Notes: a model not told the origin generated them from the sequence alone. 58,848 bases of DNA from a virus (IMGVR_UViG_3300045974_000247:1-58848), one strand, 5' to 3'; shown: positions 10,831 through 58,848, counted from the first letter of the stretch. A program made the numbers and translations.

Positions 10831-10832
10831 CG

Positions 10833-11693: not shown

Positions 11694-11809
11694 GTAAACG
11701 TCCTTTCTCTGGCTAGGGGGTTCCCCCTATAGTGGTTGGTGCGGGCAGGCGTAGTCTTTCTCAATGACCTACCAAGTTGTTGTCGCCGCCCAGAACAAGA
11801 ATGTTGTCG

Positions 11810-12402: not shown

Positions 12403-12405
12403 GGG

Positions 12406-13080: not shown

Positions 13081-13333
13081 GACCCACCCTTTCTCATCCG
13101 TGACCCTGCGTGTCTCTTCCGTGTGCAGACTCATGTCGCCTCCCAGCCTCCCGGTTCCCCCGGGGGCTTCGTTCGATTCCCGCCCCGACCCTCCGAGAGG
13201 CCCCTGGCGCTCAGCCTCCCCGCAGCCCCGTAGGCTGGCAGAGGGCCCTACCCCCTCCACGAGGACCCTCAGACCCCCATCCGCACAGTGCCTAGGGGCT
13301 CCGGATGGGGGGTAGACCCCCCCGAAAGGGTAC

Positions 13334-16491: not shown

Positions 16492-16498
16492 GGCACTC

Positions 16499-19589: not shown

Positions 19590-19759
19590 GAGTACGTGTG
19601 TCGAAAGCAGACACCCACTTGCCTGCTGCTCGAGGCGCTGCTTTACCAACAGAGACTGCGAGTACGTGTGGCGAAAGCAGACAATGCTGCTTTCCCATCC
19701 ACGACTGCCAGTACGTGTGTCGAAATCGGACAGCGTGCTGCTTTCGCCACACGTACTCG
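19590..19759. repeat. Three direct plus one inverted ~23-bp repeats between HNH and terS
   Basis: AGTACGTGTG(T/G)CGAAA(GCA/TCG)GACA at 19591, 19661, 19710; inverted copy at 19738-19759. Confidence 0.85.
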
Positions 19760-19908
19760 TAGCGAACCAGCGCCATTGGTGGGTAGGGGGGGTCGATTTC
19801 TTAGAGGGCACCAGAGCTACCGTTGCCTTTGGCATGCTTGGAACACGCCATCAAAACAGGCCCAAAACACGCCAGACCGCCAGCCGGTAGCCCCCCGGGA
19901 GGGGTAGC

Positions 19909-33974: not shown

Positions 33975-35033
33975 ATGGCGACGCTGCGCTTCCATACCTT
34001 GTTCTGTATGGACGAGGAACGTGGTGACCTAGACATGCAGCGGCGTGTATGGGCGGGAGAGGGCAATCCGATGCTGGAGGCCCTCCCCCGCTACTCGCGC
34101 TTGAACACCAACTGCTTTGGGAAGCACTCCCACGCCACGGCCCCCGCCTACGCCAGCGCAGACCCGGGAGCGGGGTACATCGACAGCGGCATCAAGAACG
34201 CAAAGCCCCTCACGAGCGCGATGCTCTCCACCACCCCCACGGTGACGTACACGCACAACGAGGGGGCGCATGAGCGCGCTAGCGTGTTCGTGTTCCAGGT
34301 AGGTCTTACCGCTGCTCAGGCAGCGACCATCTCGTCAGCGGTGCTCTACTGCGCTCTGGCGAGTCAGGGAGTCAATCAGTTTGCGGGTAGGTTGCCCATG
34401 CCTCACAAGGACGGCACCTACAAGTGGGCTTGGAAGATTTATGGGGTCGCGGAGGATGACTTCCACCCGGAGCGCGAGACACAGCCGAACGGGTACGACT
34501 GGACGATGATGACGGAGGCGTACCACCACATTCCGTACAAGTGCTTTGCAGGGCAGAAAGACCCCAACCTGTCCGGACTCAACGGGAGGTTTTACCTGGC
34601 GGATTCGCTTGCTTGCTACCGCGAACACACGGTAGCGGTGACGGCCTGGGAGTGGCCCTTCAGCTTGACCGCACCTGGGTTTGCTACGCAGGGTTCTGCG
34701 GCTGTGCCCCCTCCCGGGGGGACCACCACGGCTCCGTGGACGAGCCCCGACATCACAGAGATCATCAAGGAAATCTGCGGCAGACCGGGGTGGGTCGCTG
34801 GGAACCGGATTGCGCTGGTGTTCGCTCCCGATGGAATCTGGAATGACATGAGCGATACAATGATTGCCGTGAGCAACCAGGACTACCCGTCAGACCCTAA
34901 CCCCGCGCTTGCTGCCCAGTACTTGGCCGAGCTTGTACCGCTAGGCTTCAACCACGACTACTTCGTCAACGCAGGAACAGATCAACCTCAGTTTCAGATG
35001 GCGCAGGTTGAACTCAGGATCACGGTGCCCTAA
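33975..35033 (+). CDS. Putative virion protein (DNRLRE-like beta domain)
   Basis: ATISSA.L and SPDIT.IIKEI..RPGW..GN.I motifs. Confidence 0.55.
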   Translation: MATLRFHTLFCMDEERGDLDMQRRVWAGEGNPMLEALPRYSRLNTNCFGKHSHATAPAYASADPGAGYIDSGIKNAKPLTSAMLSTTPTVTYTHNEGAHERASVFVFQVGLTAAQAATISSAVLYCALASQGVNQFAGRLPMPHKDGTYKWAWKIYGVAEDDFHPERETQPNGYDWTMMTEAYHHIPYKCFAGQKDPNLSGLNGRFYLADSLACYREHTVAVTAWEWPFSLTAPGFATQGSAAVPPPGGTTTAPWTSPDITEIIKEICGRPGWVAGNRIALVFAPDGIWNDMSDTMIAVSNQDYPSDPNPALAAQYLAELVPLGFNHDYFVNAGTDQPQFQMAQVELRITVP

Positions 35034-38000: not shown

Positions 38001-41000
38001 GTACGTCGGCTGACGTTGGCGTCGGGGGGTTGACCTTCGCGGCTCCGCTGGATGGGCGTCTGTTTGCGACTACGCGAGCGGAGGATTGGCGCAAGGGCGC
38101 GCCGTCCCCTTCCCTCACTTCGATGCTCGTGGCCTTCGTGGGCGACGGCAAGCTGTACGTCTACTCTTCGCGCAGCTATGATGCGAAGGGGTTTGCGCTG
38201 GCGGGTAACATCTGGACGCTGGAGATTGGTCCCACGGGCTCAGGGGCTGCGACTGTCGTTGACGTGAACCCCGACGCAGAGGTGGCCTTCCTCCACGGTC
38301 TCACGCGGGACCGGCAGCACCGGACCATCCTCGTGGCGCGCACCTCTAGCGGGAACTGCGTGCTGGGCTCGCGCACGGACGATGTCATCACGACCGCATC
38401 GGACGGTTCCGCGCCCACGACGACTCCTGGAACGTGGACGACGCGCAGCGTGCCGAACTTCGCGCAGGCGTACATGGGGAGCCCCGGCATCAAGTTGACT
38501 GGGGTGGCTGACGAGCCCGACTTTGAGACGGCCAGTCTCGTGCTGGTCAGGCCGGCAGCGCCCCACATGGAGTTCCTCCGCATCGACAGCCTCAACCCGG
38601 GTAAGCCCGATGGGCGCTCGTCTACGAACCTCAACACCTCGCACAGCAGTTCCGAAGCGGTCATGTGCAACCCCCCGCCGTGGGGTCCGTATGACGCGCC
38701 CAACACCATCTCGCCCAACACGCAGTGGTACGATGGTCGGTTGGTGGATGACTGGCCTGCCTGCACCCAGGTTATCATGCGAACTGCCCACGGCGGGGCG
38801 ATGGGCTTCGACCTCTCCGGGGGGAAGCTCCGCGCGCAGCGTATCTATGACCGTGCACGCCTGTCCGAGATCAGCAGCATCGACGCGCCTACGGGAGCGA
38901 CGACCATCCGCGTGATCTCTGAGCGCGCGCCTGAGGGCGCGGAAGTGGCGGTCATGGTCGGTGGGGGCGCGGGTGCCTGGGCGATGTTCACGGTCACGGC
39001 GGGCATGGACATCAGTCGCATCGACGCACCCACCCCCGACCTCAAGTGGCGCTTGACGACGGGCACGCTGGAGGCGGGCACCAACGTCGTGCTCCAGCAG
39101 GACTCAGGTCTTCGCGGGCTCACCAAGCTCCCCGGCTACAACACCTTCGGCGCAACGTGGCAGTGGGACTCCTGGAGCGCCGTGCCCGCAGGCCTGATGA
39201 ACCACGCGGGCACGGCCAAGGTGAAGGTTCTGGGCGGCAAGGGGCAGAGCGTGCGCCTCAAGATCACGAACACCTCGCTGGGAGGTGGCGCGTGGATTGA
39301 CGGCACGTTCTACCCGTATGGCTACGAACCGCACATCGGATACACCGGGTCGCCAGAGCTCATCGGTGGCTTGGAGTTCCCGATGATTCGGTGGCAGGCG
39401 TGGTACATCAGTCAGGACGGGGGCAAGACCTTTGACCGGTGCTACGCCACCCAGTGGATTCCTTGCGGAGAGTCGCCCAGCAACGGAGAGGTCATCATCC
39501 AGACGCCCACGCTCACGGGCGACGAGGTTTGGATTTGCAAGGAGGCGCCCAACGACTACGAAACGTGGCAGCTCAAGGTGACTGAGGTGCTGTCTCGCGC
39601 GGCCAACCCGCTCGATACTGCCTACCACAAGGTCAAGTGCGTCGCTTCCAATGGTGACCTGCTCTACTTGGGCAGCGACCCGGCCAAGATTGGCCAACCA
39701 GTCTCGCAGGTCGAGACTGATGGGGTGCGCAAGCTCGTGACGTGGGAGCCCAATCTACCGGGTAACGCCACGGGAGTTGGCTGCGACAACTGGAAGGGGA
39801 TGCTCATTGACTGGGAGTTTGCGGACGGGGGCAAGCCTCGCGCGGAGAAGTCCCTCATCGTCTGCTACGGTGACGACGATGCGTCGGAGCAAGGCCCCGG
39901 TCGCAACCTGTTGTTCATGATCGACTTCCTCTTGTCGGGGGCAGTGCGCGCTCGGTCGCTGCTCAAGAAGTTCTCATTCCTGTTCATCCCGATGTCGTCG
40001 CAGGCAGGCGTCAAGTATGGCCAGGCTCGCTTCGCGCTGGACGGCATAGGGAGCGGAGGCAGCTACGATCACGTCACCCCTGCACAGTGGGTCACGGGCA
40101 GTCAGTACCGCGTGTGGGGCGGGGGCTCGCGCATCGGTGAGTTCGTCATCACGGCGGCGCAGGAGGAGTGGCGCTCCTCCATGCCCGTGGAGCGACAGGC
40201 TGATGCAGTGTTTTGTGAAACGTCGTGGCACGCCGACACCCACAACCGCGATGCCGCAACTCCGTTGGTGCCTCCGTTCCTCGTGGTGGGGTTCCCTGGG
40301 TTTGCTACTCCTGAAGCAGGCGTGGCCGCGTTCAACACGCGCTACCTCCCCACCGTGTGGCCGGAGGTTCATGCAAGGCAGACAGGCTACTCCTCGCCCG
40401 TCACCCCGGGGTCAACGAACTTCACACTGGAGCTTCCTTGGAACGGTCCCAGCCCCAAGCTGACGTTCTGGGGTGCCGACGACTCCGCGAAGAACTGGGC
40501 AGCTGCGTTCCTCGATGGCATCAGCATCGCGGGTGGCGCGTTCGATGTCTACGATGAGACAGGCGAGGATGCCTCCATCGCCAGCGACGTGGTCAAGGAC
40601 CAGCTGATCTTCACGGAGGCCCCCGCTGGCGCCGCCAAGGGGCCTGCTACTGCGACCGACCAGGCCATTGGACGGGAGACTCCCGCTGAGCGGGTCGTTG
40701 CCCCGGACAGCAGCGTCGCTCAGATGCAGGCGGCTGAGGTCGCGGCTCAGGCGGCTCAGTCGCGCGAGCAGGCCAGCGCTGGTCTGTCGCTCACCGACGT
40801 GACTGCCGGCGGAGCGCAGGCCGGGGACGTTGCCGAGGCTCACCCCGCCTACACGGAAGCCCCTGCCGGCGGTGCACAGACCGGGGACTCCACGGGAGCC
40901 TCCCGGGTAGCCCCCGAAGCTCCCTCAGGGGCGGGGCAGGCCCCCGGAGCGGTCACGGGGGCCTTGACCGGAGTAGCGGCCCCCTCCGGCGCTGCACAGG

Positions 41001-41488
41001 CCCCGGGCACTGTGCTCGATAGCTTGAGCGGCACGCCCCAGCCGAGCGTCGTGACGGAGGCTCTCTCAGGCGCGGGGCAAGCCACAGGCGTGGTCGTGGA
41101 TACGCAGCTCCGCGATGGGCAGACGGTGGTGGGGGCCTTCCCCGCGCTGCCTGGCCTCAGCATCGCGCTCACGCGCATCCCCCTGTACAAGACCTACGTG
41201 GGGACCTCGGTGACCGGGCATGAGACTCGACACGCGCGCCAGGGAAGCCCCCGGTACAGGTACTCGCTGGAGATGGAGATGCTCCGCAAGAACCTGACGG
41301 TGGATGAGGCCCAGCAGCTCGCTGACTTCATCATGGCCCAGCTCGGGCGGTATGGGCGCTTCACTTTCTTCGACCCCTACGACAACCAGCCGCGCACCTG
41401 CCGCTTCGACACAGACGAGACCACCTTTGAGCGACTGGTCTCGGACATCTGGCAAGTGCGGGCCCTCGACATCATCACGGTGAAGTAG
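35033..41488 (+). CDS. Giant tail protein (2151 aa) with C-terminal DUF2460/Dit-like domain
   Basis: Beta-rich modules with D/A/V linkers; M14-peptidase-like segment; ends with FPALPGL..R.P...T...SVTG.E.R...PRY.Y.L...G....F.F.DP.D. Confidence 0.75.
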   Translation: MAGSFIGAGATVTGAGVTSLSVPVPSGNSGDLLYLQTSLSVASTPAGWTVVVAGQLYRKTATAASEGNVALATLDGDYFGGEDWTVYNSSARVTRWRGIDAAPLGSQIQLVAQTVDIVFTFTQLAAGRAVLVFFNTPWDSITPGTTCSGKYNGVAFEGSVALAGSTISKAGAAYTLSCAAGTSSNQLRLSANGDTYATIVWHNVPAGSSTYTHEGADAGVAQDAVADSIHQAVTTEVVTDVAVVKESETDTAPQHAGLVSYNVKAGNGVLEYATLPSGLQAGDVVIAIDPGVLMAGAFSGWSQATCSPTSGNGSYFQWRRYTGVGEERIYANVPSGQQLIQIALRGVPLTGTIVSGSTQRVGGVGASGSVAGFLVKSGAPLIAFLSDYKSSNVTLPPTPTGPVTTKIAEGIGSVGQYSWSLYLDFASATGVVGAESYSGTSSNLNLRYIGLVMAADSYSDAATDTSVAADAVADTFHDVNVSEVVADVAQAKEAPPADPERDHVPGPLSEVVTGAATAPGVVVTQAPAVQLDPLVGCYGGGDAYSGEVKGKFTSPTDGYIGRRRQLGKAVSPDARGDRALFFVPRAQVPKDGSGTVGRATLILTPVTVGTYDASDPVAGTLAKVQAAPASLNPNTCTLEDVLSAALSGDYGTFAMRALWSDGDPVVTRVGPGVTGSVGPVWLCGGRGYFTTLKARPQNPWEINLTSLVNARVAAGQDIAAVLDFSPSGRADTKVVAEFYGQAVPELRPRLEVDPFGASDLVFSDLDTCTPTLSVTTPAGATLKEIAWGYDSSCEQGYTTGVTKVDHFKDFSPYEFPMLETSARVFVKVTLDYGGPDRTVTFERSFFTPKSHRPKMLAKDSTGIGLSAARSLHPYISHPAGVSTLWAQLNSASSFTIWGHTSQPVTIDENTGARGYNFGQSAGRGSIGGDSWQDIGGCFTDWATAAHYTMLSNLRTADSRYNVVLYRTTGAFSYAWNIWDMIYIGPDFSVGTSADVGVGGLTFAAPLDGRLFATTRAEDWRKGAPSPSLTSMLVAFVGDGKLYVYSSRSYDAKGFALAGNIWTLEIGPTGSGAATVVDVNPDAEVAFLHGLTRDRQHRTILVARTSSGNCVLGSRTDDVITTASDGSAPTTTPGTWTTRSVPNFAQAYMGSPGIKLTGVADEPDFETASLVLVRPAAPHMEFLRIDSLNPGKPDGRSSTNLNTSHSSSEAVMCNPPPWGPYDAPNTISPNTQWYDGRLVDDWPACTQVIMRTAHGGAMGFDLSGGKLRAQRIYDRARLSEISSIDAPTGATTIRVISERAPEGAEVAVMVGGGAGAWAMFTVTAGMDISRIDAPTPDLKWRLTTGTLEAGTNVVLQQDSGLRGLTKLPGYNTFGATWQWDSWSAVPAGLMNHAGTAKVKVLGGKGQSVRLKITNTSLGGGAWIDGTFYPYGYEPHIGYTGSPELIGGLEFPMIRWQAWYISQDGGKTFDRCYATQWIPCGESPSNGEVIIQTPTLTGDEVWICKEAPNDYETWQLKVTEVLSRAANPLDTAYHKVKCVASNGDLLYLGSDPAKIGQPVSQVETDGVRKLVTWEPNLPGNATGVGCDNWKGMLIDWEFADGGKPRAEKSLIVCYGDDDASEQGPGRNLLFMIDFLLSGAVRARSLLKKFSFLFIPMSSQAGVKYGQARFALDGIGSGGSYDHVTPAQWVTGSQYRVWGGGSRIGEFVITAAQEEWRSSMPVERQADAVFCETSWHADTHNRDAATPLVPPFLVVGFPGFATPEAGVAAFNTRYLPTVWPEVHARQTGYSSPVTPGSTNFTLELPWNGPSPKLTFWGADDSAKNWAAAFLDGISIAGGAFDVYDETGEDASIASDVVKDQLIFTEAPAGAAKGPATATDQAIGRETPAERVVAPDSSVAQMQAAEVAAQAAQSREQASAGLSLTDVTAGGAQAGDVAEAHPAYTEAPAGGAQTGDSTGASRVAPEAPSGAGQAPGAVTGALTGVAAPSGAAQAPGTVLDSLSGTPQPSVVTEALSGAGQATGVVVDTQLRDGQTVVGAFPALPGLSIALTRIPLYKTYVGTSVTGHETRHARQGSPRYRYSLEMEMLRKNLTVDEAQQLADFIMAQLGRYGRFTFFDPYDNQPRTCRFDTDETTFERLVSDIWQVRALDIITVK

Positions 41489-49553: not shown

Positions 49554-50059
49554 AGCACTTCGACGCTCGGGCTCCCTGGATTGCCGGGGTGGTGGTGCTG
49601 GTCGCTGCGGCCGGTGGCGGGTTGGAGACCATCAGCGACCCGAAGTTGTACAGCGACCACGGCTGGGCGCTGTACGTCTTCGGGGCAGACTTCATGCTGC
49701 TCATGATCATCATCCTCCGAGCGGCGCTCCAGCTGCGCGCCAACAAGAACTTCGACGCGCGCCTGGAGCACGCCGTCAAGGCCCGACTCGACCTGGCACG
49801 TCAGGTCGGGCAGCTGGAGGGTGCCGCCCGGGAGCGCAACATCCGGCTCGACCTACAGCGTCGCATCCTCGACACGCTGCGCGACCGCAGCGTCATCCTC
49901 CGGGACTGCGACGAGGACCACGAGCTGCGCCTGATGCGCATCGAGGAGAAGTTCCGGCTGTCGCATGACCAGGCGGTGGCGCGCGTGGCGCTGCGTGGTC
50001 GAGCCTTCGATGACTCGCTGGACAGCACGCTGGTGGAAGAGCTGACTCGCAAGCAGTAA
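49550..50059 (+). CDS. Membrane protein with coiled coil
   Basis: Two hydrophobic helices; ATGA overlap; last plus-strand gene. Confidence 0.6.
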   Translation: MKHFDARAPWIAGVVVLVAAAGGGLETISDPKLYSDHGWALYVFGADFMLLMIIILRAALQLRANKNFDARLEHAVKARLDLARQVGQLEGAARERNIRLDLQRRILDTLRDRSVILRDCDEDHELRLMRIEEKFRLSHDQAVARVALRGRAFDDSLDSTLVEELTRKQ

Positions 50060-50553
50060 CGCAGCTGCCCAACTCCGACAGGGCAAGTCTCGCAGGTTGC
50101 GGTCTTCCTGCGAGCGTCGTGGCACTCCCGGGCCCGTGGTGCCTCGGGTATGGCGGAGAGCACCTCCGAGCGGCCCCCGGCCAGCCGTCCCCAGCGGCCC
50201 GGTCCGGGGGCCTCTCGCCTTCCTCCCCCGTTCGGGGGATGAGTACCTGTCCGGGGGTAGCCTGAGGGGCCTCCGCGCCCCTAGGCACTGTGCGGCGAGG
50301 AGGGGGGGTCACAGGAGTGGCGGGTCGCCAGGTAGCGTCAGAGCCCGGGGCTGCCAGGGGCCTTCCCCCCACGGTCCCGGGGGCTGGTGTCCCCGGTCCT
50401 CCGGCTCCCGGGGGCTGGCGCGCCCCATGGGCCGGTAGGCTCGGGGGTCGAGCCCCCGGAGCGTCAGCCGGAGGGGCGCGAGGAGCGTCAGGCGCCAAGC
50501 CGCTCGCCAGCCCCCAGTCGAGGTCCCCCGGGAGCAACCTGCGGATGTGCGAA

Positions 50554-50595
50554 GGGCCCGACCCCCTGCGCCGTCAAGCGCAGGGGGTCGGGCCC
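50554..50595 (-). terminator. Perfect 18-bp hairpin between the convergent arms
   Basis: gggcccgaccccctgcgc-cgtcaa-gcgcagggggtcgggccc. Confidence 0.7.
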
Positions 50596-50620
50596 CCGGT
50601 GCTGCAGTCCTGCGCGCCGG

Positions 50621-50890
50621 TCAGCCGACGCTGATGATGCCGCGCTTCGTGTCGCCCAGGAGGTAGCCCGTGTCGCCGCCAGCCTCCACGAACTCGCCCA
50701 CGGTCATGCCCGACTTGTACAGCGAGCGGGTCTTGCTGGCGGCGCTGTCGGGCCGCTTCTCGACCTTGGCCGCGACAGCCGCCTTGTCGAGCACCTTGAT
50801 CTTCTGACCGAGCCGAGCAGCGCGGGCACCCGGCTCCTCCTTCGCCACGACCTTCTTCTCCACCTTCGTGTTCTTCTTCGCAGCAGCCAT
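50621..50890 (-). CDS. Small basic protein, KIKVL..Y..G.TV.E domain (paralog 1)
   Basis: Strong RBS AAGGAG; shares a domain with the C-termini of 51758-52810 and 57355-58164. Confidence 0.8.
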   Translation of the reverse strand: MAAAKKNTKVEKKVVAKEEPGARAARLGQKIKVLDKAAVAAKVEKRPDSAASKTRSLYKSGMTVGEFVEAGGDTGYLLGDTKRGIISVG

Positions 50891-50932
50891 CTGGCACTCC
50901 TTGGTTGGTTGGGGTACTGCCTCAGAGACAGA

Positions 50933-50960
50933 ACCATACGCTGGTTCGCACCAAGGGGAA
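50933..50960 (-). promoter_or_regulatory. Putative promoter for 50621-50890
   Basis: TTCCCC-N16-TATGGT, preceded by GCG as in the 8788 promoter; similar CAACCAACC leader. Confidence 0.4.
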
Positions 50961-50967
50961 GGCCCCC

Positions 50968-51016
50968 AACAAGAAGGGCCCGCTGGCTCGCCTAGTCAAG
51001 GCGAGCCAGCGGGCCC
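50968..51016 (-). terminator. Intrinsic terminator
   Basis: Perfect 17-bp stem gggcccgctggctcgcc/ggcgagccagcgggccc followed by TTCTTGTT on the minus strand. Confidence 0.75.
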
Positions 51017-51021
51017 AAGGG

Positions 51022-51210
51022 TCAGGCAGGGTCGCGCGCGCAGACCACGAGCGGCTGCGGCTCACGGCGCGGGTCGGGGTCGATGTGGTGCAAGTTCCCG
51101 CACCCGCAGTGCGTCAGCGGGCAGTTGGTCGGGTCGGAGCAGCGCCGCCTGACGAAATGCATCTTGGGGAGCTTGCCGGGTCGGAACCCGGGGAACACGA
51201 CGGGGCGCAT
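51022..51210 (-). CDS. Small Cys/His-rich protein
   Basis: RBS GGAGG; C...CP..HCGCG..HH. Confidence 0.5.
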   Translation of the reverse strand: MRPVVFPGFRPGKLPKMHFVRRRCSDPTNCPLTHCGCGNLHHIDPDPRREPQPLVVCARDPA

Positions 51211-51295
51211 CAGGACCTCCTTCAGCGGGTGATGAGGAACAGCACGAACGCAGCGGTGGCGAGCGCGTCCACGAGGACGTTGAGCCAGTTGTCCT

Positions 51296-51691
51296 TCATG
51301 TCGCCTCCACCGGCTGGTAGTACACCTCCCCAGTCTTCTCGTCCTTGAACTTGGCGCACGCCTGGGCGCCCTTCTCTTCGTACCCGGCATCGCGGCGCCA
51401 TCCCTCGTCCCAGCGCACGTCGCCCATGTACCGGGCGCGCTTGGCGACCTCCTTGCTGACGTCCACGATGGTGGGCGTGCCGGGCTTGTCGTAGTCGGGG
51501 AGGCGCCAGGCCTTCCCAGCGGTCATCTTGAACGGCATTGGCTTGATCCTTTCGCAGTAGTGGCAGGGTTGAACGGTCCACTCGCCCAGATTGTACGGCC
51601 CCTCCCCCTCGTTGGGGAGCGAAGGAGCGTACAGGGCGAGGATGCGGTTGCACCCGGGACAACGCTCCCGGTCAGGCTGCTTCTTCGACAC
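51296..51691 (-). CDS. Hypothetical protein with CxxC pairs
   Basis: RBS GGAGG, GTG start; CPGC...CHYC. Confidence 0.65.
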   Translation of the reverse strand: MSKKQPDRERCPGCNRILALYAPSLPNEGEGPYNLGEWTVQPCHYCERIKPMPFKMTAGKAWRLPDYDKPGTPTIVDVSKEVAKRARYMGDVRWDEGWRRDAGYEEKGAQACAKFKDEKTGEVYYQPVEAT

Positions 51692-51757
51692 GTGGCCTCC
51701 ACGCGCGCTCGGAGCCGGGCACTACGCCACCCGGCTCCGAGCCGCTCAGCGGTTGAG

Positions 51758-52810
51758 CTACTTGACGGCGACCAGGGCGCGCACCGTTGCGTCCTTGCGG
51801 ATGTACGTCCAGTCGCACCCGTGGGTCTGGCACTTCTCCTGGAACTGCTCGACCGTCATGCCGTCCTTGTAGAAGGTCCGGCACTCATACGCCTTGGAGG
51901 ACTTGTTGCCGGTGTCCTCCAGGAACTTCTTCAGCGCCGGCAGCACCTTGATCTTGGCGCCCTCCGGGAACCCGGTCCCCTTCGGAGCCTTGGGGGCCTT
52001 CTTCTCCTTCGGGGCCGCAGCCGGGGCAGGGGTCTTCTTGGCGACCTCGGCCTTGGCCGCCTTCGGGTCGAGGGTCTTGGCGGTGGCGAGCGCGGGAGCC
52101 TCGGGGGCCTTCGCCTCCCTGGGCACGCTCGCGCGGTCCACCTTCGCCACGCCCAGCTCCGGCATGGGGAGCTTCTTGGACTGCTTCTCGGTCTTCTTGT
52201 CGTCGGTCTTCTTGGCCATGGACTTCTCCTTCAGGTAGTTGTGGACCAGCTCAGCACGGACCTGCGCCGGGAGAAACCGGAAGCCAGCGCCGTGCTCCTT
52301 CTCCAACTCGCGTAGTGCGTCGATCAACTCCACGTGCTCGATGCGAGCCGCCAGGCTCGCCACGACCTCCTTCTGCGGGTCATCCGCCGGGTGCTTGTGG
52401 TTCGCGCGCATCAGGTCGAACAGCTTCTCTGCGAACTGCCAGGCCAGCGACACGCCGCTGGTCCGCTGCCCCCGGAGCGTCAGCTTCCGCACCGGGTTGT
52501 CGCTTGAGTTGTACTTGCCCTCCGTCATGAAGTCCAGGTGGTGGTAGAACTCGTGGAACACCGTCTTGAGGTGCGCGCGCGAGTGGATGGAGATGCTCCT
52601 GCTCTTCGGGTGGTACCAGCCGTTGGCCCCCTCGTCGGGGGTCCGCTCCGTAACCTGGGGAGGCTTGATCTTGTAGACCCGGGCGAGCACGGCCAGAACG
52701 ACCCGTGCTCGCTTGCGGTCTACCTTGAACCAGTAGCCTCGGTGTATGGGGAACAGCGCTCTCAACTCTCGGGGACACCGCACGTCCCACGTCTGGGTAG
52801 CAGCGAGCAT
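51758..52810 (-). CDS. HExxH metallopeptidase-like domain + K/A/P-rich linker + KIKVL domain (paralog 2)
   Basis: GWY......I.I....TVFHEFYHH; internal RBS+ATG at 52219. Confidence 0.7.
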   Translation of the reverse strand: MLAATQTWDVRCPRELRALFPIHRGYWFKVDRKRARVVLAVLARVYKIKPPQVTERTPDEGANGWYHPKSRSISIHSRAHLKTVFHEFYHHLDFMTEGKYNSSDNPVRKLTLRGQRTSGVSLAWQFAEKLFDLMRANHKHPADDPQKEVVASLAARIEHVELIDALRELEKEHGAGFRFLPAQVRAELVHNYLKEKSMAKKTDDKKTEKQSKKLPMPELGVAKVDRASVPREAKAPEAPALATAKTLDPKAAKAEVAKKTPAPAAAPKEKKAPKAPKGTGFPEGAKIKVLPALKKFLEDTGNKSSKAYECRTFYKDGMTVEQFQEKCQTHGCDWTYIRKDATVRALVAVK

Positions 52811-52814
52811 CGGG

Positions 52815-53342
52815 TCACCGAGCCGGGATGAGGTTGAAGTGCCGAGCGGCTGCGAGCTGCTCCACGCCGTCACCGTGGTGGTCGCGCCCCTCGGCCTCGC
52901 ACACCTCCTCATAGTCCTCGTCCTGCGCCAAGCGGTCAGCCGTCACGGACCAGCGGACCTCGCCGCACCCGTTGATGCTGACGAGGCAGAACCACCGGCC
53001 ATCGCGCTGGAAGTAGTAGTCAGCGCACTTGGGGTGGGTGAGCCAGGGGCTGTCGGCGCGCACCTCCGCGAGCACGTAGCTGTTCTTGCTGCGCGACCAG
53101 TAGATGTCGTTGGTCGTGTTCATGTCGCGGAGCGTCACGTCCACCCGGGCTCCGTGCTGCGTGTCCTTCCAGCCGAAGATGGCCGGGGGCCCCGCGATGA
53201 ACCGCTCGGGGATGCCCTTGGCGCACTCCTCGCAGAGCCGCGTGCCGTAGATGGTCTTGACCTTCCCCCTCGGGGAGGGGCACCCGTCAGGGTGCACGGT
53301 CCGGCAGCGGAGAGCTTCGCATTCGCAGGTACGGGTGGTCAT
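52815..53342 (-). CDS. Hypothetical protein
   Basis: CECE...H...CP...LCEECA; RBS GAGG. Confidence 0.6.
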   Translation of the reverse strand: MTTRTCECEALRCRTVHPDGCPSPRGKVKTIYGTRLCEECAKGIPERFIAGPPAIFGWKDTQHGARVDVTLRDMNTTNDIYWSRSKNSYVLAEVRADSPWLTHPKCADYYFQRDGRWFCLVSINGCGEVRWSVTADRLAQDEDYEEVCEAEGRDHHGDGVEQLAAARHFNLIPAR

Positions 53343-53596
53343 GGCTTCCTCTTCGCAGGCGTCCAGCCCGCGCGCTTGAGTAGGTTGAGAACATCGGTGG
53401 GCTTGGTCGGCGGGCTGTACCCCTCCACGAGGGGCTTCCCATCGAGGCTGATCCAGTACTGCGGGCGGGAGGACGAGCGCCCCCCACCCAGGTAGGTCCA
53501 GGAGTACCGCAGGCTCACCTGGACGCGGTTGTCTTCGGAGCGCCACTCCTGGAAGCGGAGCGGCTTGAGGGTCCGGTCGAGGAGCTTGACGCCCAT
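53339..53596 (-). CDS. Hypothetical protein
   Basis: ATGA overlap; RBS GGAG. Confidence 0.6.
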   Translation of the reverse strand: MGVKLLDRTLKPLRFQEWRSEDNRVQVSLRYSWTYLGGGRSSSRPQYWISLDGKPLVEGYSPPTKPTDVLNLLKRAGWTPAKRKP

Positions 53597-53598
53597 GG

Positions 53599-54108
53599 CT
53601 AGTCTCCAATGCCGTGGTACTCTTCCGTCACCACCAGGCCCTTGCCGGCCCCCAGGTCGATGACGTACACCTGGTTGAGCTTCATCCCCTGGCCCCACGT
53701 GGACTTCGGGAACCAGCGCTGGTCGCGCCAGTGCCACACCTCGTGGAACCGCTGGCTGATCGCCTCCCCCATCAGCGGGGTCAGCGCCGCGCCCTGGTAC
53801 GTCAGGTCGTGGGCGTACCAGCAGCGGTCATCGTAGGACATCTGCTTCTCGTGGACGAAGGTTCGCGTGGCGAGGTGGACGACGCCAGCCGACTGGCGGG
53901 TGACCCGGAGCGTGATGCGGGGCTCCAAGCGGAGCTCACCAGCGTCGGTGGTGTACACGTACAGGTTGAGCTCCTCCTTGAAGGTGCCGCCCCGGATGAC
54001 CTCGGGGAAGGCCAGCGCCTCCACCCGGTTGCGGCGCACGTATGCGACCACGGTGTCGCCGGGGAGGAGCTGGGAGCTGGACACGTCGGTCTGGTAGGTC
54101 GGCTGCAT
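53599..54108 (-). CDS. Hypothetical protein
   Basis: RBS GGAG after the conserved leader. Confidence 0.65.
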   Translation of the reverse strand: MQPTYQTDVSSSQLLPGDTVVAYVRRNRVEALAFPEVIRGGTFKEELNLYVYTTDAGELRLEPRITLRVTRQSAGVVHLATRTFVHEKQMSYDDRCWYAHDLTYQGAALTPLMGEAISQRFHEVWHWRDQRWFPKSTWGQGMKLNQVYVIDLGAGKGLVVTEEYHGIGD

Positions 54109-54140
54109 GGTTGGTCTCCAGAGGGTAGGTTGAGCATCGG

Positions 54141-54198
54141 GTCGAGGGACCCAGCGAGAGGAGCGAGCAGCGCTCGCCCCCCTCAAGTGCTCCTCGAC
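54141..54198 (-). ncRNA. Conserved intergenic stem-loop element, copy A
   Basis: GUCGAGGAGCACUUGAG-[variable hairpin]-CUCGCUGGGUCCCUCGAC. Confidence 0.75.
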
Positions 54199-54235
54199 AG
54201 AGCCACGGAGCCTACCGTGGCTGGCGGTGGTGCGA

Positions 54236-54427
54236 CTAGTCAGCCTTCCTGTTGTGCGGCCAACGGAGGGAGTGCGTCCATCCTCCGGGGAGCGGCTCAG
54301 CCCAGCGCTCGTTGTCGAGCACCCCGGCGCAGCGCTGCCCGGGGGAAGCGTCGCACGTGGGGCAGCGGAAGACGAGGGAGCGCGCGACCTGGGCCGCGTG
54401 CCACTCGGACATCGGGAGCGACTTCAT
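54236..54427 (-). CDS. Small Zn-finger protein
   Basis: CPTC.A.PG.RC...H..R; RBS AAGGAGG. Confidence 0.6.
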   Translation of the reverse strand: MKSLPMSEWHAAQVARSLVFRCPTCDASPGQRCAGVLDNERWAEPLPGGWTHSLRWPHNRKAD

Positions 54428-54705
54428 GGTGCCCTCCTTCGGGCGGGGAGTCGAGCGGTTTGGGAGCAGCGGGAGCCGTGAGCGGTCTGGACGTAGACGA
54501 TGGCGGTGAGCGGCCACTCACGAGGGTTGTACGGCATGACCTCCAGCGGGACGATGTCGAAGCCCAGCTTGGCGGCGAACGCTTCGATGCGGTCCGGGTC
54601 TGCGTGCTGCGCGAGCGGGTGGCGCGTGGTCCCTTCGTACATCGGGGCCACGTCCTCCTTCTCGCTGTCCTCTGCGCGGGTGATGCGGAAGTAGAGCTTG
54701 GCCAT
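54424..54705 (-). CDS. Hypothetical protein
   Basis: Coupled to both neighbours. Confidence 0.55.
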   Translation of the reverse strand: MAKLYFRITRAEDSEKEDVAPMYEGTTRHPLAQHADPDRIEAFAAKLGFDIVPLEVMPYNPREWPLTAIVYVQTAHGSRCSQTARLPARRRAP

Positions 54706-55085
54706 CACACGCTCCAGTTGAAGATGACTTCGTTCGTGCGCGGCCACATCGTCGTCATCATCGCGGAGGGCCCGCCGTCATCCGCGCCCATCACCATCTC
54801 CTCCACGTGGGCCCGGGTCCAGAAGGAGGGGCTGAGGGAGGAGTCGTTGAGCATGTCGTTGTCGAGCGCGGCGCGCAGCTCCCGGCGCAGCTCCAGCTGG
54901 TCGTGCTTCGGGACCGCGCCGTGCTCAGCCACGTAGCAGCCGACCAGGTTGTCCAGGACGACTGCGAGGAGGTCAGGCGTGGCCGTGTAGCCGCAGCCGT
55001 GGCACTTCGTTCCCAGCTCCAGGAGGAGGGACCGGCGGGAGCCGTTCATGTCGGGCGGGCAGCGGGGGCAGTAGTGGGTGGTCAT
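54705..55085 (-). CDS. Hypothetical protein with N-terminal Zn ribbon
   Basis: CPRC...CHGCG; RBS GAGGAG. Confidence 0.6.
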   Translation of the reverse strand: MTTHYCPRCPPDMNGSRRSLLLELGTKCHGCGYTATPDLLAVVLDNLVGCYVAEHGAVPKHDQLELRRELRAALDNDMLNDSSLSPSFWTRAHVEEMVMGADDGGPSAMMTTMWPRTNEVIFNWSV

Positions 55086-55087
55086 GG

Positions 55088-55372
55088 TCACTTCTCCTCG
55101 CAGGAGCAGAGCCCCTGGCACTTCGGGCAGTCGCACTCCCCGTAGATGGCGGCGGTGCAGGGTCGGTTGGTTGCCGCCCACTCGACGCAGGCGGGGCACT
55201 TCGGGGTCGCCAGGTGCCAGAGCTTCTCGCGCCACTCGATGAGTCCCGCCTTCTCCATGTCGCGGAGGGAGGCGCGGCAGTTCAGGAGCAGCTGGTCAGC
55301 GGTGGCGGGGCCGGTCTGGAGTCGGGCCAGGACGAGCGCCTGGCCGGTGAGCTTCCTGTTCTTGGTCGTCAT
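55088..55372 (-). CDS. wHTH-like plus Cys-rich protein
   Basis: VL.RL..GP.T...L...L..MEKAGLI; CPAC...C...CDCPKC..C.C. Confidence 0.6.
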   Translation of the reverse strand: MTTKNRKLTGQALVLARLQTGPATADQLLLNCRASLRDMEKAGLIEWREKLWHLATPKCPACVEWAATNRPCTAAIYGECDCPKCQGLCSCEEK

Positions 55373-55374
55373 GG

Positions 55375-55587
55375 CTAGCCTCGGGCTGCGTAGGTGAGGA
55401 GGGAGTTGGCGAGGTGGAGGGCCTGCTTCTTCGTGAGCCGGATAGACTGGGTGGCGAAGCCGCGCCGCCACTTGCCGTCGGAGCCCAGCACGGAGGCGCG
55501 GTTGCCGACGATGAGCTCCAGCTTCGGCTCTCCGTCACGGCAGGTCACTGCGAAGGGGCGCTTGGTCTTGCGGACGAGGGGGATCAT
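55375..55587 (-). CDS. Hypothetical protein
   Basis: RBS GGAG; I.LT..QA..LA..LL ending. Confidence 0.6.
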   Translation of the reverse strand: MIPLVRKTKRPFAVTCRDGEPKLELIVGNRASVLGSDGKWRRGFATQSIRLTKKQALHLANSLLTYAARG

Positions 55588-55617
55588 TGGTGTCTCCAGG
55601 TAGGGTGAGCGGTTGGA

Positions 55618-55854
55618 CTAGCTGCGGCGGGTGATGACGACAACGGCGTGGCGGGCGAAGTGGACGTGGACGCGGGGCAGGTCGGAGCCCTCGGCGATGA
55701 GCTTGGGCTCGCAGGTGAACGTGAAGGACTCGCCAACCTCCAGCTCGTCCAGCTGCGCTTCGCGGCGCACGGAGCAGGCCAGCGCTGCGAGGCTGAGAGC
55801 GGTCTTGAGCTTGCCGGTCCCGGAGTTGTAGCTGTCGAAGGTCTTGGTCGTCAT
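55618..55854 (-). CDS. Hypothetical protein (MTTK start)
   Basis: RBS GGAG after stem-loop B. Confidence 0.6.
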   Translation of the reverse strand: MTTKTFDSYNSGTGKLKTALSLAALACSVRREAQLDELEVGESFTFTCEPKLIAEGSDLPRVHVHFARHAVVVITRRS

Positions 55855-55884
55855 GGCGGTGTCTCCGAAGGGTAGGGTGAACGG

Positions 55885-55949
55885 GTCGAGGGACCCAGCG
55901 AGCAAGAGGAGCGGCCGCAGCCGGTCCTCCCGCTCAAGTGCTCCTCGAC
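55885..55949 (-). ncRNA. Conserved intergenic stem-loop element, copy B
   Basis: Identical arms to copy A, different apical hairpin. Confidence 0.75.
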
Positions 55950-56188
55950 TAGCTGCGGGTGCTCCAGTGCAGCAGGGAGCCGGAGGGGAACCCCTCGCCC
56001 GGGACAGCGGCGACAGGCTCGGTGAACCAGGCGTTGAGGACGTCAGCGGAGGCCTGGTTGTCGAACACGTCCAGGATGACGTGGCCGACGTGCGCCAGGA
56101 CGTTCCGGACCCGCGCCCCTTCGATGCCGCGCTTCTGGGTCGCTGCGATAGCCTGGTCGGCGTTGCCCTTCACGATCAGCGTGTACAT
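55949..56188 (-). CDS. Hypothetical protein
   Basis: L..WF.E......G.P.GSLL.W pattern; RBS GAGG. Confidence 0.6.
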   Translation of the reverse strand: MYTLIVKGNADQAIAATQKRGIEGARVRNVLAHVGHVILDVFDNQASADVLNAWFTEPVAAVPGEGFPSGSLLHWSTRS

Positions 56189-56190
56189 GG

Positions 56191-56373
56191 CTAGTTCCTC
56201 TCCAGTCGGTCGATGTCGTTGATCATCATGATCGCGTTCTGCGCCGCGTGGCTGTTCAGGCACCAGTCGCGCACCGCCTTCTTCTGGTCCCGGTCCTCGG
56301 CCTCTCGCAGCGCCTTGTTGGCCATCGCGAGTGCAGCGAGCAGCGCCTTCATGTTCTTGTTCGTGAGCTTCAT
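56191..56373 (-). CDS. Hypothetical protein
   Basis: RBS AAGGAG. Confidence 0.6.
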   Translation of the reverse strand: MKLTNKNMKALLAALAMANKALREAEDRDQKKAVRDWCLNSHAAQNAIMMINDIDRLERN

Positions 56374-56399
56374 GGCAGCTCCTTCAGGTAGGGTGAGCT

Positions 56400-56858
56400 T
56401 CAGTACTCCACGCACTGCGTCATGACCTTGCGCCAGCCCTTGACCATCTTGGCTCCCTTGGCGAAGGAGGTCAGCCCCCCGGCCCGCCGGATGAGGACGT
56501 GGAGCCGGTTGCGGCAGAACACGGAGGAGAGCTTGCCGGCGTCGTTCGGCATCCCGGTGACGATGGTCAGCCAGAGGTCCCCGTGCTCCGTCATCTTGGT
56601 CTCCTGCTCCTTGACCTCGTAGCGGTAGGAGCCGTCAGACTGCGGGGCGCGCATCCGGTTGACGATGCGCTCGACCATCGCGGTCTGGGCAGGGGTCTGC
56701 TTCGTGCCGCGCTTCAGGACCTTTCGAGCGGCCCGCTCACCGCAGTTGGGGCACTCATACGTCGGGACCATCTTCGCCAGCTCCTCGCTCCACGTGGTCG
56801 TCTTCTTCCAGAAGTCCACGCCGCATCCGCAGTTCACTCCGCGCTTGATCTCGGCCAT
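56400..56858 (-). CDS. Hypothetical protein with Zn ribbon
   Basis: CGCG...CPNCG; RBS GAGGAG. Confidence 0.65.
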   Translation of the reverse strand: MAEIKRGVNCGCGVDFWKKTTTWSEELAKMVPTYECPNCGERAARKVLKRGTKQTPAQTAMVERIVNRMRAPQSDGSYRYEVKEQETKMTEHGDLWLTIVTGMPNDAGKLSSVFCRNRLHVLIRRAGGLTSFAKGAKMVKGWRKVMTQCVEY

Positions 56859-56860
56859 GG

Positions 56861-57052
56861 TCAGCTCCTCTTGAGGGGGGCGAGCTTGAACAGCTTCTGC
56901 GAGCACTTCAGGCACCGCCCGACCTCGGGCTGGTTGCGCGGGGTCTGAGGGCGGATGGTATGGGAGCAAGCTTCGATGCCGCAGTCCACGCAGTGGTAGA
57001 TGCGGCCGCAGCGTCCCGCACGGCACGAGCGACAGGCGATGGTCTTCTTCAT
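56861..57052 (-). CDS. Small Cys-rich protein
   Basis: CRSC...C..CVDC...C.H...CLKC; RBS AAGGAG. Confidence 0.6.
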   Translation of the reverse strand: MKKTIACRSCRAGRCGRIYHCVDCGIEACSHTIRPQTPRNQPEVGRCLKCSQKLFKLAPLKRS

Positions 57053-57054
57053 GG

Positions 57055-57261
57055 TCAGCTCCTTGCGGCGTCGTTCTGGAGGCACATCGAGCAGGTCACG
57101 GAGCCGTCCTCTGCCTCGTCGCAGCAGGCGCGGCACACGGGGTCGAGGCAACGGTCGCAGGTGAGGATCATCACCTGGTTGTCGCCGCAGCGGAAGATGA
57201 CGGGAACCTTCTTCTTGTCGCAGCAGCAGCAGGTGCGGTCGGGCTCGTTCGTGGCGGCCAT
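57055..57261 (-). CDS. Small Cys-rich protein
   Basis: CCCC, CDRC..PVC..CC, CSMC; RBS GGAG. Confidence 0.6.
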   Translation of the reverse strand: MAATNEPDRTCCCCDKKKVPVIFRCGDNQVMILTCDRCLDPVCRACCDEAEDGSVTCSMCLQNDAARS

Positions 57262-57292
57262 GGTCGGCTCCAGTGAGTAGGTTGAACGTCGG

Positions 57293-57355
57293 GTCGAGGG
57301 ACCCAGCGAGCCCAGCGAGTCCCGAAGGGCTCGCCAGGCTCAAGTGCTCCTCGAC
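57293..57355 (-). ncRNA. Conserved intergenic stem-loop element, copy C
   Basis: Identical arms; apical hairpin capped by cUUCGg. Confidence 0.78.
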
Positions 57356-58164
57356 TACTTGACGCTGATCAGGCCACGGCGGATGTCGCCGTGGAGGTAG
57401 CCCATGTCCAGCTCGGCCTTCGCCATCGCCTTCCGCCACTCGCCCACCGTCTTGGACTTGGCGTACAGGTCGAAGATGCGGCGAGCGTTCTTGCCGCGCT
57501 TCGGGTTCTCGGTCACGAGCACCTTGATCTTCGACTCGTTGGAGATGACCTCGGCGCGCTCGGCCTTGGCGGCGGGCTTCGTGGCCTTCTTGGACTCGAC
57601 CTTCTTGGCGGCGGGCTTCGTGGACTTCTTGGCGGTGGTCTTCACGGTGGTCTCCTTCTTCGTGGCGGGGGACTTCGGGGTGGTGACCTTCGCAGCCTTG
57701 GGGGCGGCCTTGCGGGCCTTGTCCTCGGCAACGGTGCGGTCGAGGGGGTGCTTCTCGGTGGCAACGGGGGCAGCGACAGCGGCGGTCTTGGTCGTCATGG
57801 CAGACTCCTTCTTGGGGTTGGACTTCTTGGACTGCTTCACAGCGGTGGACTTGTCGTTGAGGACATCGAAACCGAGCTTCGTGATCCAGCAGGTCGAGGG
57901 GTCCTGGTTGGTCCCCATGAACATCTCGTTGGTTCCCTCCTGCACCCCGACCAGCCCCTTCTTCTGCAGCGAGTTGAGCACGCCGCTGTAGGACTTGGCG
58001 GCACCGGAGAAGTCGAGGAGGGAGGAGTCGGACCAGACCGCGTTGTCGATGATCTCGGGGTTGGTCCCGTCCCCGCCGTTCAGGCAGTTGTAGAGAGAGG
58101 TGGCGATGCCGAAGAGAAGGTTGCGCTCCATCGAGGTCAGGGTCATCGAGGTCTTGGTCGTCAT
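57355..58164 (-). CDS. wHTH-like domain + histone H1-like K/A linker + KIKVL domain (paralog 3)
   Basis: LT..E...L, SGVLNSL.KKGLV, ITKLG; AKK repeats; NPKR....F.LY....TV.EW......D.GYL.GD..RG.I.V. Confidence 0.75.
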   Translation of the reverse strand: MTTKTSMTLTSMERNLLFGIATSLYNCLNGGDGTNPEIIDNAVWSDSSLLDFSGAAKSYSGVLNSLQKKGLVGVQEGTNEMFMGTNQDPSTCWITKLGFDVLNDKSTAVKQSKKSNPKKESAMTTKTAAVAAPVATEKHPLDRTVAEDKARKAAPKAAKVTTPKSPATKKETTVKTTAKKSTKPAAKKVESKKATKPAAKAERAEVISNESKIKVLVTENPKRGKNARRIFDLYAKSKTVGEWRKAMAKAELDMGYLHGDIRRGLISVK

Positions 58165-58202
58165 GGCGTTGCTCCTTGGTAGGTAGGGAAGGGGTTGAAC
58201 GA

Positions 58203-58421
58203 CTAGGCGTTGCGGATGTTGTAGAAGACGCCGCAGGTCGCGCAGCGGATGACGTTGCCGGAGCCCAGCTGTCCGGACTGGGCGATGTCCTCGCCGCAGC
58301 CTTCGCACTGATTCGACTCGACCATCCGGAAGGTCTTGCCGTTGGTCCAGAAGTACAGCGCCTCTCCTCCGACGCGGATGTACAGCTCAGCGGGCTTGCT
58401 CGTGTCGATCATCTTGGCCAT
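58203..58421 (-). CDS. Small Zn-ribbon protein, first early gene
   Basis: CEGCG...CATCG; RBS AGGAG. Confidence 0.6.
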   Translation of the reverse strand: MAKMIDTSKPAELYIRVGGEALYFWTNGKTFRMVESNQCEGCGEDIAQSGQLGSGNVIRCATCGVFYNIRNA

Positions 58422-58439
58422 GTTCGCTCCTGGTAGGTT

Positions 58440-58721
58440 GAACGGGTTTGCTTCGGGACTTCGATCAGCCCACCCTCCGAGAGGAGAGGAGGCTGACCGA
58501 AGGGGCGAGTGATCTCACCCCAGGGGTCTGGCGCGGCTGAACTCCCTTGCGAGGAGTCTGACTGGCGCCCAAGGTCTTGCGGGTCAACGGTCACTCCGTT
58601 GAAGCCCTGCTCTGGATCATCCTCCGTAGCTCTGTTGCGAACCGCTGACTGGTCGGCTGAGCTTGACGCTCACCGTTTCAGAAGTCCATACGAGGATGCG
58701 AGCAACCTTGCCTGCCGCTCT
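58440..58721 (-). ncRNA. Putative long structured leader/ncRNA, 3' part
   Basis: Minus-strand hairpins such as acuccuc-GCAA-gggagu, ugagc-gucaa-gcuca, ucaacgg-aguga-ccguuga; no credible ORF. Confidence 0.45.
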
Positions 58722-58848
58722 CGTGGCAGGGACGCACCGTGTCGTGGTGAGACGCGCTTTCGCGTATTCGATAGCTCAGAAGCTCGGAAGGTCACCGCTG
58801 ACCTTGCAGAGAATCGAAGACCGCCATTCGTACTCAGCCGCCTCTCGG
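58722..58848. repeat. Terminal direct repeat, right copy
   Basis: Identical to 1-127. Confidence 0.9.

Follow-up and report, generated by a model that had tools for sequence, protein, structure and literature searches.

The closest described counterparts of the element reported here come from actinobacteriophages and from the early region of phage T7. In the available portions of the actinobacteriophage literature, cluster K genomes are described as carrying a 13-bp start-associated motif (SAS) on 11-19 genes of their non-structural half, with 17-bp imperfect inverted repeats around a variable spacer upstream of roughly half of these genes (PMC3203893), and a similar motif pair is reported from Microbacterium cluster EF phages (PMC7302621). 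The corresponding longer element of phage Adephagia (ESAS) is given there as a 46-47 bp intergenic motif with -35/-10 hexamers and a 15-bp imperfect inverted repeat, which was interpreted in 2024 as a SigA-like promoter (PMC11373665), and the role of SAS/ESAS is stated still to need experiments (PMC12699233). For E. coli RNase III, the accessible part of one analysis indicates that substrates typically span two helical turns and that internal loops confine cleavage to one strand, leaving a protective 3' hairpin (PMC1540722). Here we describe a hairpin element of 60-70 bases that occurs in three copies between the small genes of a siphophage recorded as IMGVR_UViG_3300045974_000247, a complete virus of 58,848 bases, the whole of which was analysed and is referred to below as the window. 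Our tentative reading is that the hairpin would be a site at which an early message is cut or stabilised in the manner of T7.

Three co-oriented hairpins between small genes

The element was originally predicted from the sequence alone as an intergenic motif in three copies, and this observation is confirmed. An exact pattern search returned it at 54141-54198, 55885-55949 and 57293-57355 on the minus strand only, with no occurrence on the forward strand and none for a backwards-pattern control, so that the number, position and strand originally predicted proved exact by pattern search, by shuffle and backwards controls and by covariance model alike. The two arms are equally specific: GTCGAGGAGCACTTGAG occurs three times even with three mismatches allowed (0.33 expected from shuffles), and CTCGCTGGGTCCCTCGACCCG also three times (0.00 expected). 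When the three copies are used to build a covariance model, they score 85-92 bits against it, and because it finds no comparable further match (the next, unrelated one reaches 14.8 bits; E 0.27, filters off), the window contains exactly three copies. Across these copies 38 arm bases are invariant, paired and unpaired alike.

All copies lie in intergenic stretches and share the orientation of the surrounding genes, follow one another at intervals of 1.1-1.75 kb along the operon, and end 29-33 nucleotides (nt) before the next ATG (Table 1). As had been noticed for two of the copies, the first G of copy 1 is the final base of the TAG of gene 57355-58164 and the first G of copy 2 that of gene 55949-56188; copy 3 begins 37 nt past the TAG of gene 54236-54427, with an extra 8-bp hairpin in between. 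The bases directly 3' of the copies (CCCGACGUUCAACC, CCCGUUCACCC and CCCGAUGCUCAACC) contain no T-run.

Table 1. Positions of the hairpin copies and associated features in the window.
Feature	Coordinates	Strand	Description
Copy 1	57290-57355	minus	5' arm, 29-nt variable hairpin (tip CCCUUCGGG), 3' arm, CCG tail
Copy 2	55882-55949	minus	same arms, 31-nt variable hairpin, tip C-UGCG-G
Copy 3	54138-54198	minus	same arms, shorter variable hairpin, GCU triloop
Mini-hairpin, copy 1	57290-57305	minus	UGGGUC-CCUC-GACCCG, inside 3' arm
Mini-hairpin, copy 2	55882-55897	minus	as above
Mini-hairpin, copy 3	54138-54153	minus	as above
Extra 8-bp hairpin	54201-54222	minus	AGCCACGG-UAGGCU-CCGUGGCU, between stop codon and copy 3
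Leader TCAMCCTACY	58432-58441	minus	exact match
Leader TCAMCCTACY	57276-57285	minus	exact match
Leader TCAMCCTACY	56387-56396	minus	exact match
Leader TCAMCCTACY	55871-55880	minus	exact match
Leader TCAMCCTACY	55599-55608	minus	exact match
Leader TCAMCCTACY	54124-54133	minus	exact match
Leader TCAMCCTACY	53379-53388	minus	exact match
Gene after copy 1	57055-57261	minus	68 amino acids, Cys-rich
Gene after copy 2	55618-55854	minus	78 amino acids
Gene after copy 3	53599-54108	minus	169 amino acids, orphan
Small-gene operon (putatively early)	50976-58441	minus	about 20 small genes, mostly orphan, often Cys-rich; after a stretch of ~1.16 kb without called genes

Each copy folds into the same layered structure. 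A 7-bp basal stem (GUCGAGG/CCUCGAC) is followed by an A-C mismatch, two further pairs (G-U and C-G) and a 3x4 internal loop in which ACU lies opposite CUGG, and above this an upper stem starting UGAG/CUCG runs for 12-16 bp up to a small loop. The identical arms, basal stem and conserved internal loop of the original prediction are therefore borne out by the arm searches and the folds. The tips of two copies are of the UNCG type and closed by C-G, namely C-UGCG-G and the C-UUCG-G of copy 1, which is the one cUUCGg loop that had been pointed out; such C-G-closed UUCG/UGCG loops have unusually high stability in RNA. In the alignment, 97.1% of 69 cells are paired, against 42.0-50.7% when the partners are slid by one to three columns, and changes on both sides are found in 5 of the 14 upper-stem pairs, a count matched by 3 of 500 shuffles. 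No change at all is seen in six of the 14, and GGCGAGC...CUCGCU is common to copies 1 and 3. Of the earlier claim that the apical hairpin covaries, differing completely in sequence and yet always folding, the folding holds and the covariation is seen as far as three sequences allow, whereas the difference is not complete.

Several features distinguish the two strands. The minus strand folds at -40.1, -44.5 and -42.5 kcal/mol (z -3.05 to -3.91) and the plus strand at -30.4, -38.0 and -38.6 kcal/mol, such that the sense strand folds better than the antisense by 4-10 kcal/mol. Twelve of the 69 cells are G-U or U-G, which become A-C mismatches on the opposite strand, and one mismatch only arises in the reverse direction; the preference of the wobble pairs for the minus strand was anticipated correctly. 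The covariance model gives the antisense 17-23 bits, as opposed to the 85-92 bits of the sense strand, and the arms meet irrespective of the length of the element (58, 65 and 63 nt). Together with the UNCG-type tips, these properties favour folded sense RNA over duplex DNA, and we accordingly favour a structured sense-RNA element that acts in cis, as far as such a role can be read from sequence.

The 3' arm can also fold by itself into a mini-hairpin that is mutually exclusive with the basal stem. Alone, it is worth -8.2 to -8.4 kcal/mol, and the long form is more stable by ~5.3 kcal/mol; in all three copies it is the mini-hairpin that folds if the first 14 nt are unavailable, either blocked as they would be by a terminating ribosome or lost as they would be through a cut. 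Since it takes up both the UGGG of the internal loop and the CCG tail, which are conserved but unpaired in the long hairpin and otherwise without a role, it accounts for the conserved unpaired bases of the 3' arm. Neither state involves the start region of the next gene in pairing; it stays unpaired in all folds, for which reason the idea that the 3' arm masks the downstream ribosome binding site was rejected.

A second recurrent feature is a leader, TCAMCCTACY, which stands 2-5 nt ahead of GGAG and is then followed by ATG. Its seven exact occurrences in the window are confined to the minus-strand interval 53379-58441, and three of the seven are preceded by the hairpin. The hairpin-bearing and hairpin-free junctions share a common frame, TAGTCG ... 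TTCAACC. This start-associated leader and the mini-hairpin are both additions to the original prediction.

As far as the accessible descriptions of SAS/ESAS go, there are parallels to this arrangement. In both cases, a short and strongly conserved motif is found at the starts of some non-structural genes, and a longer pair of repeats around a variable spacer lies upstream of a portion of them, about half in the one case and three of seven leaders in the other. However, the repeats of ESAS are 17-bp imperfect inverted repeats placed 4-13 bp apart, whereas the arms here are only partly complementary, pairing over just 7+2+4 positions, and their spacer is itself a hairpin of 25-31 nt. Unlike ESAS, the element has no fitting -35/-10 pair, and whereas SAS lies over the ribosome binding site, the leader differs from it in sequence and precedes GGAG. 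The combination of a leader and an upstream repeat mirrors the still poorly understood SAS/ESAS of actinobacteriophages, and its presence in a phage with its nearest cultured relatives on Xanthomonadaceae hints that punctuating genes in this way is more widespread than its first description from particular clusters would suggest.

Proposed processing of a putative early message

For comparison, five early intergenic stretches of T7 were folded, which we take to contain the RNase III sites R0.3, R0.5, R1, R1.1 and R1.3, their positions being assumed and not drawn from the record annotation. In these stretches an internal loop separates a lower stem of 5-8 bp from an upper one of 9-10 bp; ACUCAAGG...CCUUUAUGAU surround a variable tip in three of the five, and the stop codon of T7 gene 0.4 is located inside a lower stem. 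The same traits recur in the window. Several co-oriented copies lie between the genes of one region, which here is presumably early, each consists of a lower and an upper stem separated by an internal loop, the bases next to the loop being conserved and the tip variable, and a stop codon touches the lower stem with the next start 20-35 nt further on. The layout of a T7-type RNase III site is thus present, with about two helical turns, an internal loop, a lower stem of 7+2 bp and an intergenic position within what would be a single transcript. In contrast, there is no sequence similarity to the T7 sites, which differ among themselves, whereas the arms here are identical, lower stem included, and the helices are longer and far more G+C-rich (~-40 vs -17 to -26 kcal/mol).

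By analogy with T7, we propose that the hairpin may be a processing and stability punctuation site in a polycistronic early messenger RNA (mRNA), and would put the probability of this at roughly 0.4. The transcript would fold into a quasi-continuous helix comprising the 7-bp basal stem, the A-C mismatch, the two pairs, the 3x4 loop and the upper stem of 12-16 bp, and a double-strand-specific endonuclease, most simply the RNase III of the host, would cut it at the internal loop. The upstream message would then be left with the stable variable hairpin capping its 3' end, and on the downstream message the 3' arm could refold into the mini-hairpin at or near the new 5' end, ahead of the TCAMCCTACY-GGAG leader, so that each block of genes might be given a separate stability. 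We infer the cleavage itself, its site, its enzyme and its effect on stability. Among the RNA-level roles listed by the original prediction, that of a processing site agrees with the T7-like layout, and a role in the transcribed strand agrees with the fold asymmetry and the G-U cells; overall, these options are partly supported. The element is a new sequence family, and under this proposal its kind would already be known from T7-style operon punctuation. If the proposal is true, it would represent a compact and portable case of a phage dividing one early transcript into separately stabilised messages, possibly with a two-state twist in which the same bases are first half of a long stem and later a hairpin capping the 5' end. 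Its value is limited by the evidence of one genome and three copies, with none of the relatives searched carrying the element.

A number of observations weigh against processing of this type. First, the substrate alignment in the accessible part of the RNase III analysis revealed no conserved positive sequence determinants (PMC1540722), from which it follows that RNase III alone would not keep 38 bases invariant, lower stem included. Second, the phage record encodes no RNase III of phage origin. Third, the nine pairs of the lower helix are invariant and therefore provide no covariation evidence for or against the fold, and the mini-hairpin, being invariant as well, is without covariation support; as a 5-bp self-complement within a 21-nt arm, it could be due to chance, at roughly the percent level by our estimate. 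The statistics for the upper stem are likewise weak, as they derive from three sequences of one genome. Fourth, for reading the operon as early and as a single transcript, the gene layout and the lack of a consensus promoter within it are the only basis. Lastly, the covariance model found nothing at E <= 1 in ten whole related viral records, with the phage's own record matching as a positive control, and the sequencing runs containing the stretch amount to one DNA run, probably from the source sample, with no RNA run among them.

The invariance of 38 bases beyond the needs of RNase III favours a sequence-specific partner, and we consequently rank as the main rival to T7-like processing, though still as an unlikely one, the possibility that the element is the RNA binding site of a specific phage or host protein acting in antitermination, translation or decay, or being the nuclease itself. 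The arms and internal loop would then constitute the recognition surface, with the variable hairpin merely joining them, which would suit both the identity of the arms in all three copies, a constraint in excess of structural need, alongside a tip that has drifted, and the meeting of the arms at any element length. Two genes precede copy 1 in the operon, one of them coding for a 72-amino-acid zinc-ribbon protein, which leaves room for an early factor to be produced beforehand; once bound, it could switch the RNA between its basal-stem and mini-hairpin states. However, no candidate protein emerged: the early proteins scanned gave no PHROG match and a single Pfam match, to a putative DNA-binding zinc finger. 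Antitermination is further disfavoured by the lack of a downstream terminator in need of override, and translational control by a start region that is unpaired in both states. A narrower variant, which we judge improbable, would have a dedicated phage RNA-binding or RNA-cutting protein read the 38 bases and cut the early message at three places, as a private punctuation system. As part of the same scenario, the 3' arm would flip from basal stem to mini-hairpin, leaving both products protected by hairpins, and in logic the system would have more in common with Cas6 cutting its CRISPR repeat than with RNase III.

It is also conceivable, but in our view distinctly unlikely, that the hairpin is passive, terminating or pausing transcription without the help of a U-tract or simply serving as a barrier to 3' exonucleases, with neither cleavage nor a dedicated partner. 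Elements of the REP/BIME type, which are repeated imperfect palindromes inside operons, act as such barriers and can shield the upstream message from 3' exonucleases, and the present element resembles them in being a repeated imperfect palindrome within an operon. Its great stability (-39 to -43 kcal/mol) and its placement at gene ends, 1.1-1.75 kb apart, would both fit. Nevertheless, neither the invariance of the arms nor the internal loop nor the conservation of the CCG tail would be needed in a passive hairpin. The original statement that the copies are not intrinsic terminators is correct insofar as no U-tract follows: the G+C-rich hairpin is present and the U-tract is absent, and a terminator scan lists none of the copies. 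The terminator-like palindromes of the phage also look different. Judged by sequence features, the element is distinct from what appear to be the phage's own terminators, which are perfect palindromes starting GGGCCCG, one of them with a T-rich tail.

Relatives and possible roles at the DNA level

The original prediction had also proposed that the element be compared with Rfam and used to build a covariance model. Rfam 15 yielded no family match, with none in the whole window at gathering scores and, at E <= 10 over 54000-57500, five weak matches that overlap no copy. The covariance model recovered the three copies at 85-92 bits and yielded nothing convincing in relatives. Among viral contigs, no match was obtained for both arms with a gap or for the 19-nt 3' arm, the 17-nt 5' arm matched one stretch without 3' arm or hairpin, and a looser two-part pattern matched 14 stretches, all by chance. 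In bacterial genome contigs the loose pattern matched at least 120 stretches; among the 134 viral and bacterial matches listed, none has more than 9 of the 18 flanking arm bases and all are chance-like. A blastn search of copy 1 against 50,697 phage records returned nothing below E 0.3. In a sample of Lysobacterales, single matches with two mismatches occurred in 2 of 401 genomes, compared with 2 for a control pattern, and in five whole bacterial genomes reached via the chance-hit loci the 3' arm was found in none at up to two mismatches.

Relatives of the phage were reached through its SNF2 helicase (17 loci, at most 66% identity) and its DNA polymerase (one locus, 55%). On 17 related loci the best score of the covariance model was at most 16.8 bits (E 0.55). 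Of the overlapping L006 and L007, only L007 was searched as a whole record, and relatives L014-L020 were covered as fetched flanks only. No match to L004-L020 resulted from tblastn with the translations of the early operon (21 queries, two of them mis-set frames), and the 169-amino-acid protein encoded after copy 3 has only its self-match among 5.8 billion proteins. Repeat families in L004, L005, L008, L013 and L015 were considered as analogous elements and rejected, as they are coding repeats. In L006 at 7100-12800, and in L007, there are 12 near-identical promoter-like sites of the sigma-70 type with a TTGCAA/TTGCGT-type hexamer, a 16-17 bp spacer and TACTCT, which precede small genes in the region equivalent to the small-gene operon and in some cases follow terminator hairpins.

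These sites, together with the published interpretation of the Adephagia ESAS as a SigA-like promoter with an inverted repeat (PMC11373665, as far as its accessible text goes), raise the question of whether the element could be a promoter and/or operator in DNA, modelled on the ESAS of cluster K mycobacteriophages, and the CCTACYC of the leader does resemble the second hexamer (TACTCT) of the L006/L007 sites. We nonetheless regard this as very unlikely. A consensus promoter scan gave no sites in 50000-58848, nor any in 1-1000, and neither by scan nor by eye is there a sigma-70/SigA pair of -35/-10 hexamers 16-18 bp apart, with no TTGACA-like hexamer visible at that distance ahead of TACCCT/TACTCA. 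A start point after TACCCT/TACTCA would moreover cost the transcript its conserved GGAG. The spacing between the arms is not constant, differing by 7 bp, and that between arm and leader differs by 3-4 nt. Duplex DNA offers no reason for G-T wobbles to favour one strand, and the phage encodes no sigma factor.

The other DNA-level possibility is a recombination or mobile element, whether an attC-like cassette boundary, an insertion resembling a MITE or REP, or a priming signal. Integron attC sites have conserved ends with the cores RYYYAAC/GTTRRRY, a folded centre that is variable in sequence and length, and one active strand, and the element shares the conserved ends, the variable folding centre and the preference for one strand. 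The common TAGTCG ... TTCAACC frame of junctions with and without the hairpin also looks as if a module had been gained or lost. Against this, the phage record contains no match to PF00589 (tyrosine recombinase; the control was positive in 14 of 14 genomes) or PF01797 (Y1 transposase), and the ends, GTCGAGG...CCTCGAC, differ from the attC cores. No clean target duplication is visible, and a recent mobile element would retain an identical centre. REPs, for their part, have many copies in host chromosomes and are paired with RAYT transposases, whereas here there is no Y1 transposase and, among the matches listed, no true copy in the bacterial genomes searched, all being at chance level. In the single DNA run, probably that of the source sample, one contig spans 53000-58800 with no differences and no joint at any copy, and neither a contig joining across copies nor cassette exchange was seen among its contigs, which drop rare variants; the sole joint in that run is at a Lys-rich coding repeat and probably comes from other organisms. 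The attC-like option of the original prediction is weakened by these results, and the chance of a recombination or mobile element seems to us slimmer still than that of a promoter. Even combined, roles at the DNA level appear quite improbable.

Some further candidates were discarded. Stop-codon readthrough was rejected because the frame reaches TGA after four codons, and a sigma-54 promoter, a kink-turn and a tRNA-like substrate were rejected by eye, ARAGORN reporting no genes.

Genome setting and additional observations

The genome has 66% G+C (62-69%). A plus-strand block at ~19.9-50.1 kb encodes the small and large terminase, portal, capsid, tape measure, gene-transfer-agent-like tail proteins and a cell-wall hydrolase, and a minus-strand block running from 18.5 to 0.9 kb encodes a primase-helicase, thymidine-hypermodification-type enzymes, a family A DNA polymerase, a PD-(D/E)XK nuclease and the SNF2 helicase. 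By DNA polymerase (~45% identity), the nearest cultured phages infect Stenotrophomonas and Pseudoxanthomonas, both Xanthomonadaceae. A search for PF00940 (phage RNA polymerase) found nothing in the record, its control being equally silent.

The string of small genes extends from 58421 down to ~51.0 kb, for an operon length of ~7.4 kb, and comes to an end at 50976-51016, where an 18-bp palindrome carries a T-rich tail. It is separated from the palindrome that follows the SNF2 helicase gene at 799-842, as its terminator palindrome, by a stretch of ~1.16 kb (1-882 plus 58442-58848) that is locally lower in G+C and gene-free according to a filter on G+C at third positions. This stretch holds the 127-base terminal repeat of the record and a perfect 15-nt inverted repeat (334-348 / 401-415). 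Among the small proteins encoded at 54236-58421 on the minus strand, paired CxxC motifs resembling zinc ribbons are common. The product of 54236-54427 matches PF24623 (putative DNA-binding phage zinc finger), the sole Pfam match above the cut-off among the early proteins scanned.

Two perfect 18-bp palindromes, at 50554-50595 and 50976-51016, both begin GGGCCCG and have TTGAC in the loop; between them, where the gene arms converge, lies one gene only, 50621-50890. The product of this gene shares a C-terminal domain (..KIKVL.. TV.E.. G.. ..G.I/V.V) with those of 57355-58164 and 51758-52810, all on the minus strand. In each, the domain follows Lys/Ala/Pro-rich linkers and a strong hairpin lies directly 3' of the gene, and a similar domain is found at the end of four genes in the relative L006. 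For the 89-amino-acid member, Atlas gives viral hypothetical clusters only, with weak winged-helix-like structural leads.

A base-hypermodification set occupies 9590-16527 on the minus strand, consisting of a thymidylate-synthase-like enzyme (9590-10759), a 5-hmdU DNA kinase (10833-11693), an NAD epimerase/dehydratase (13334-14572), a PIG-L-type deacetylase (14634-15215) and a TET-associated or beta-glucosyl-HMC-alpha-glucosyltransferase-like enzyme (15661-16527), and suggests that the virion DNA may carry sugar-decorated thymidine. Among the tail genes, 35033-41488 on the plus strand encodes a protein of 2151 amino acids with matches to known families near its C-terminus only (DUF2460 at 2036-2119 and a PHROG at 1967-2119), its ~1,960 N-terminal residues having no sequence match in Pfam, PHROGs or PDB. 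Finally, the divergent region between the gene arms contains, at 19656-19762, the 25-nt CTGCGAGTACGTGTGGCGAAAGCAG, which recurs in inverted orientation at a distance of 57 nt; a third, related copy lies at 19705-19725, making these repeats a candidate operator or origin.

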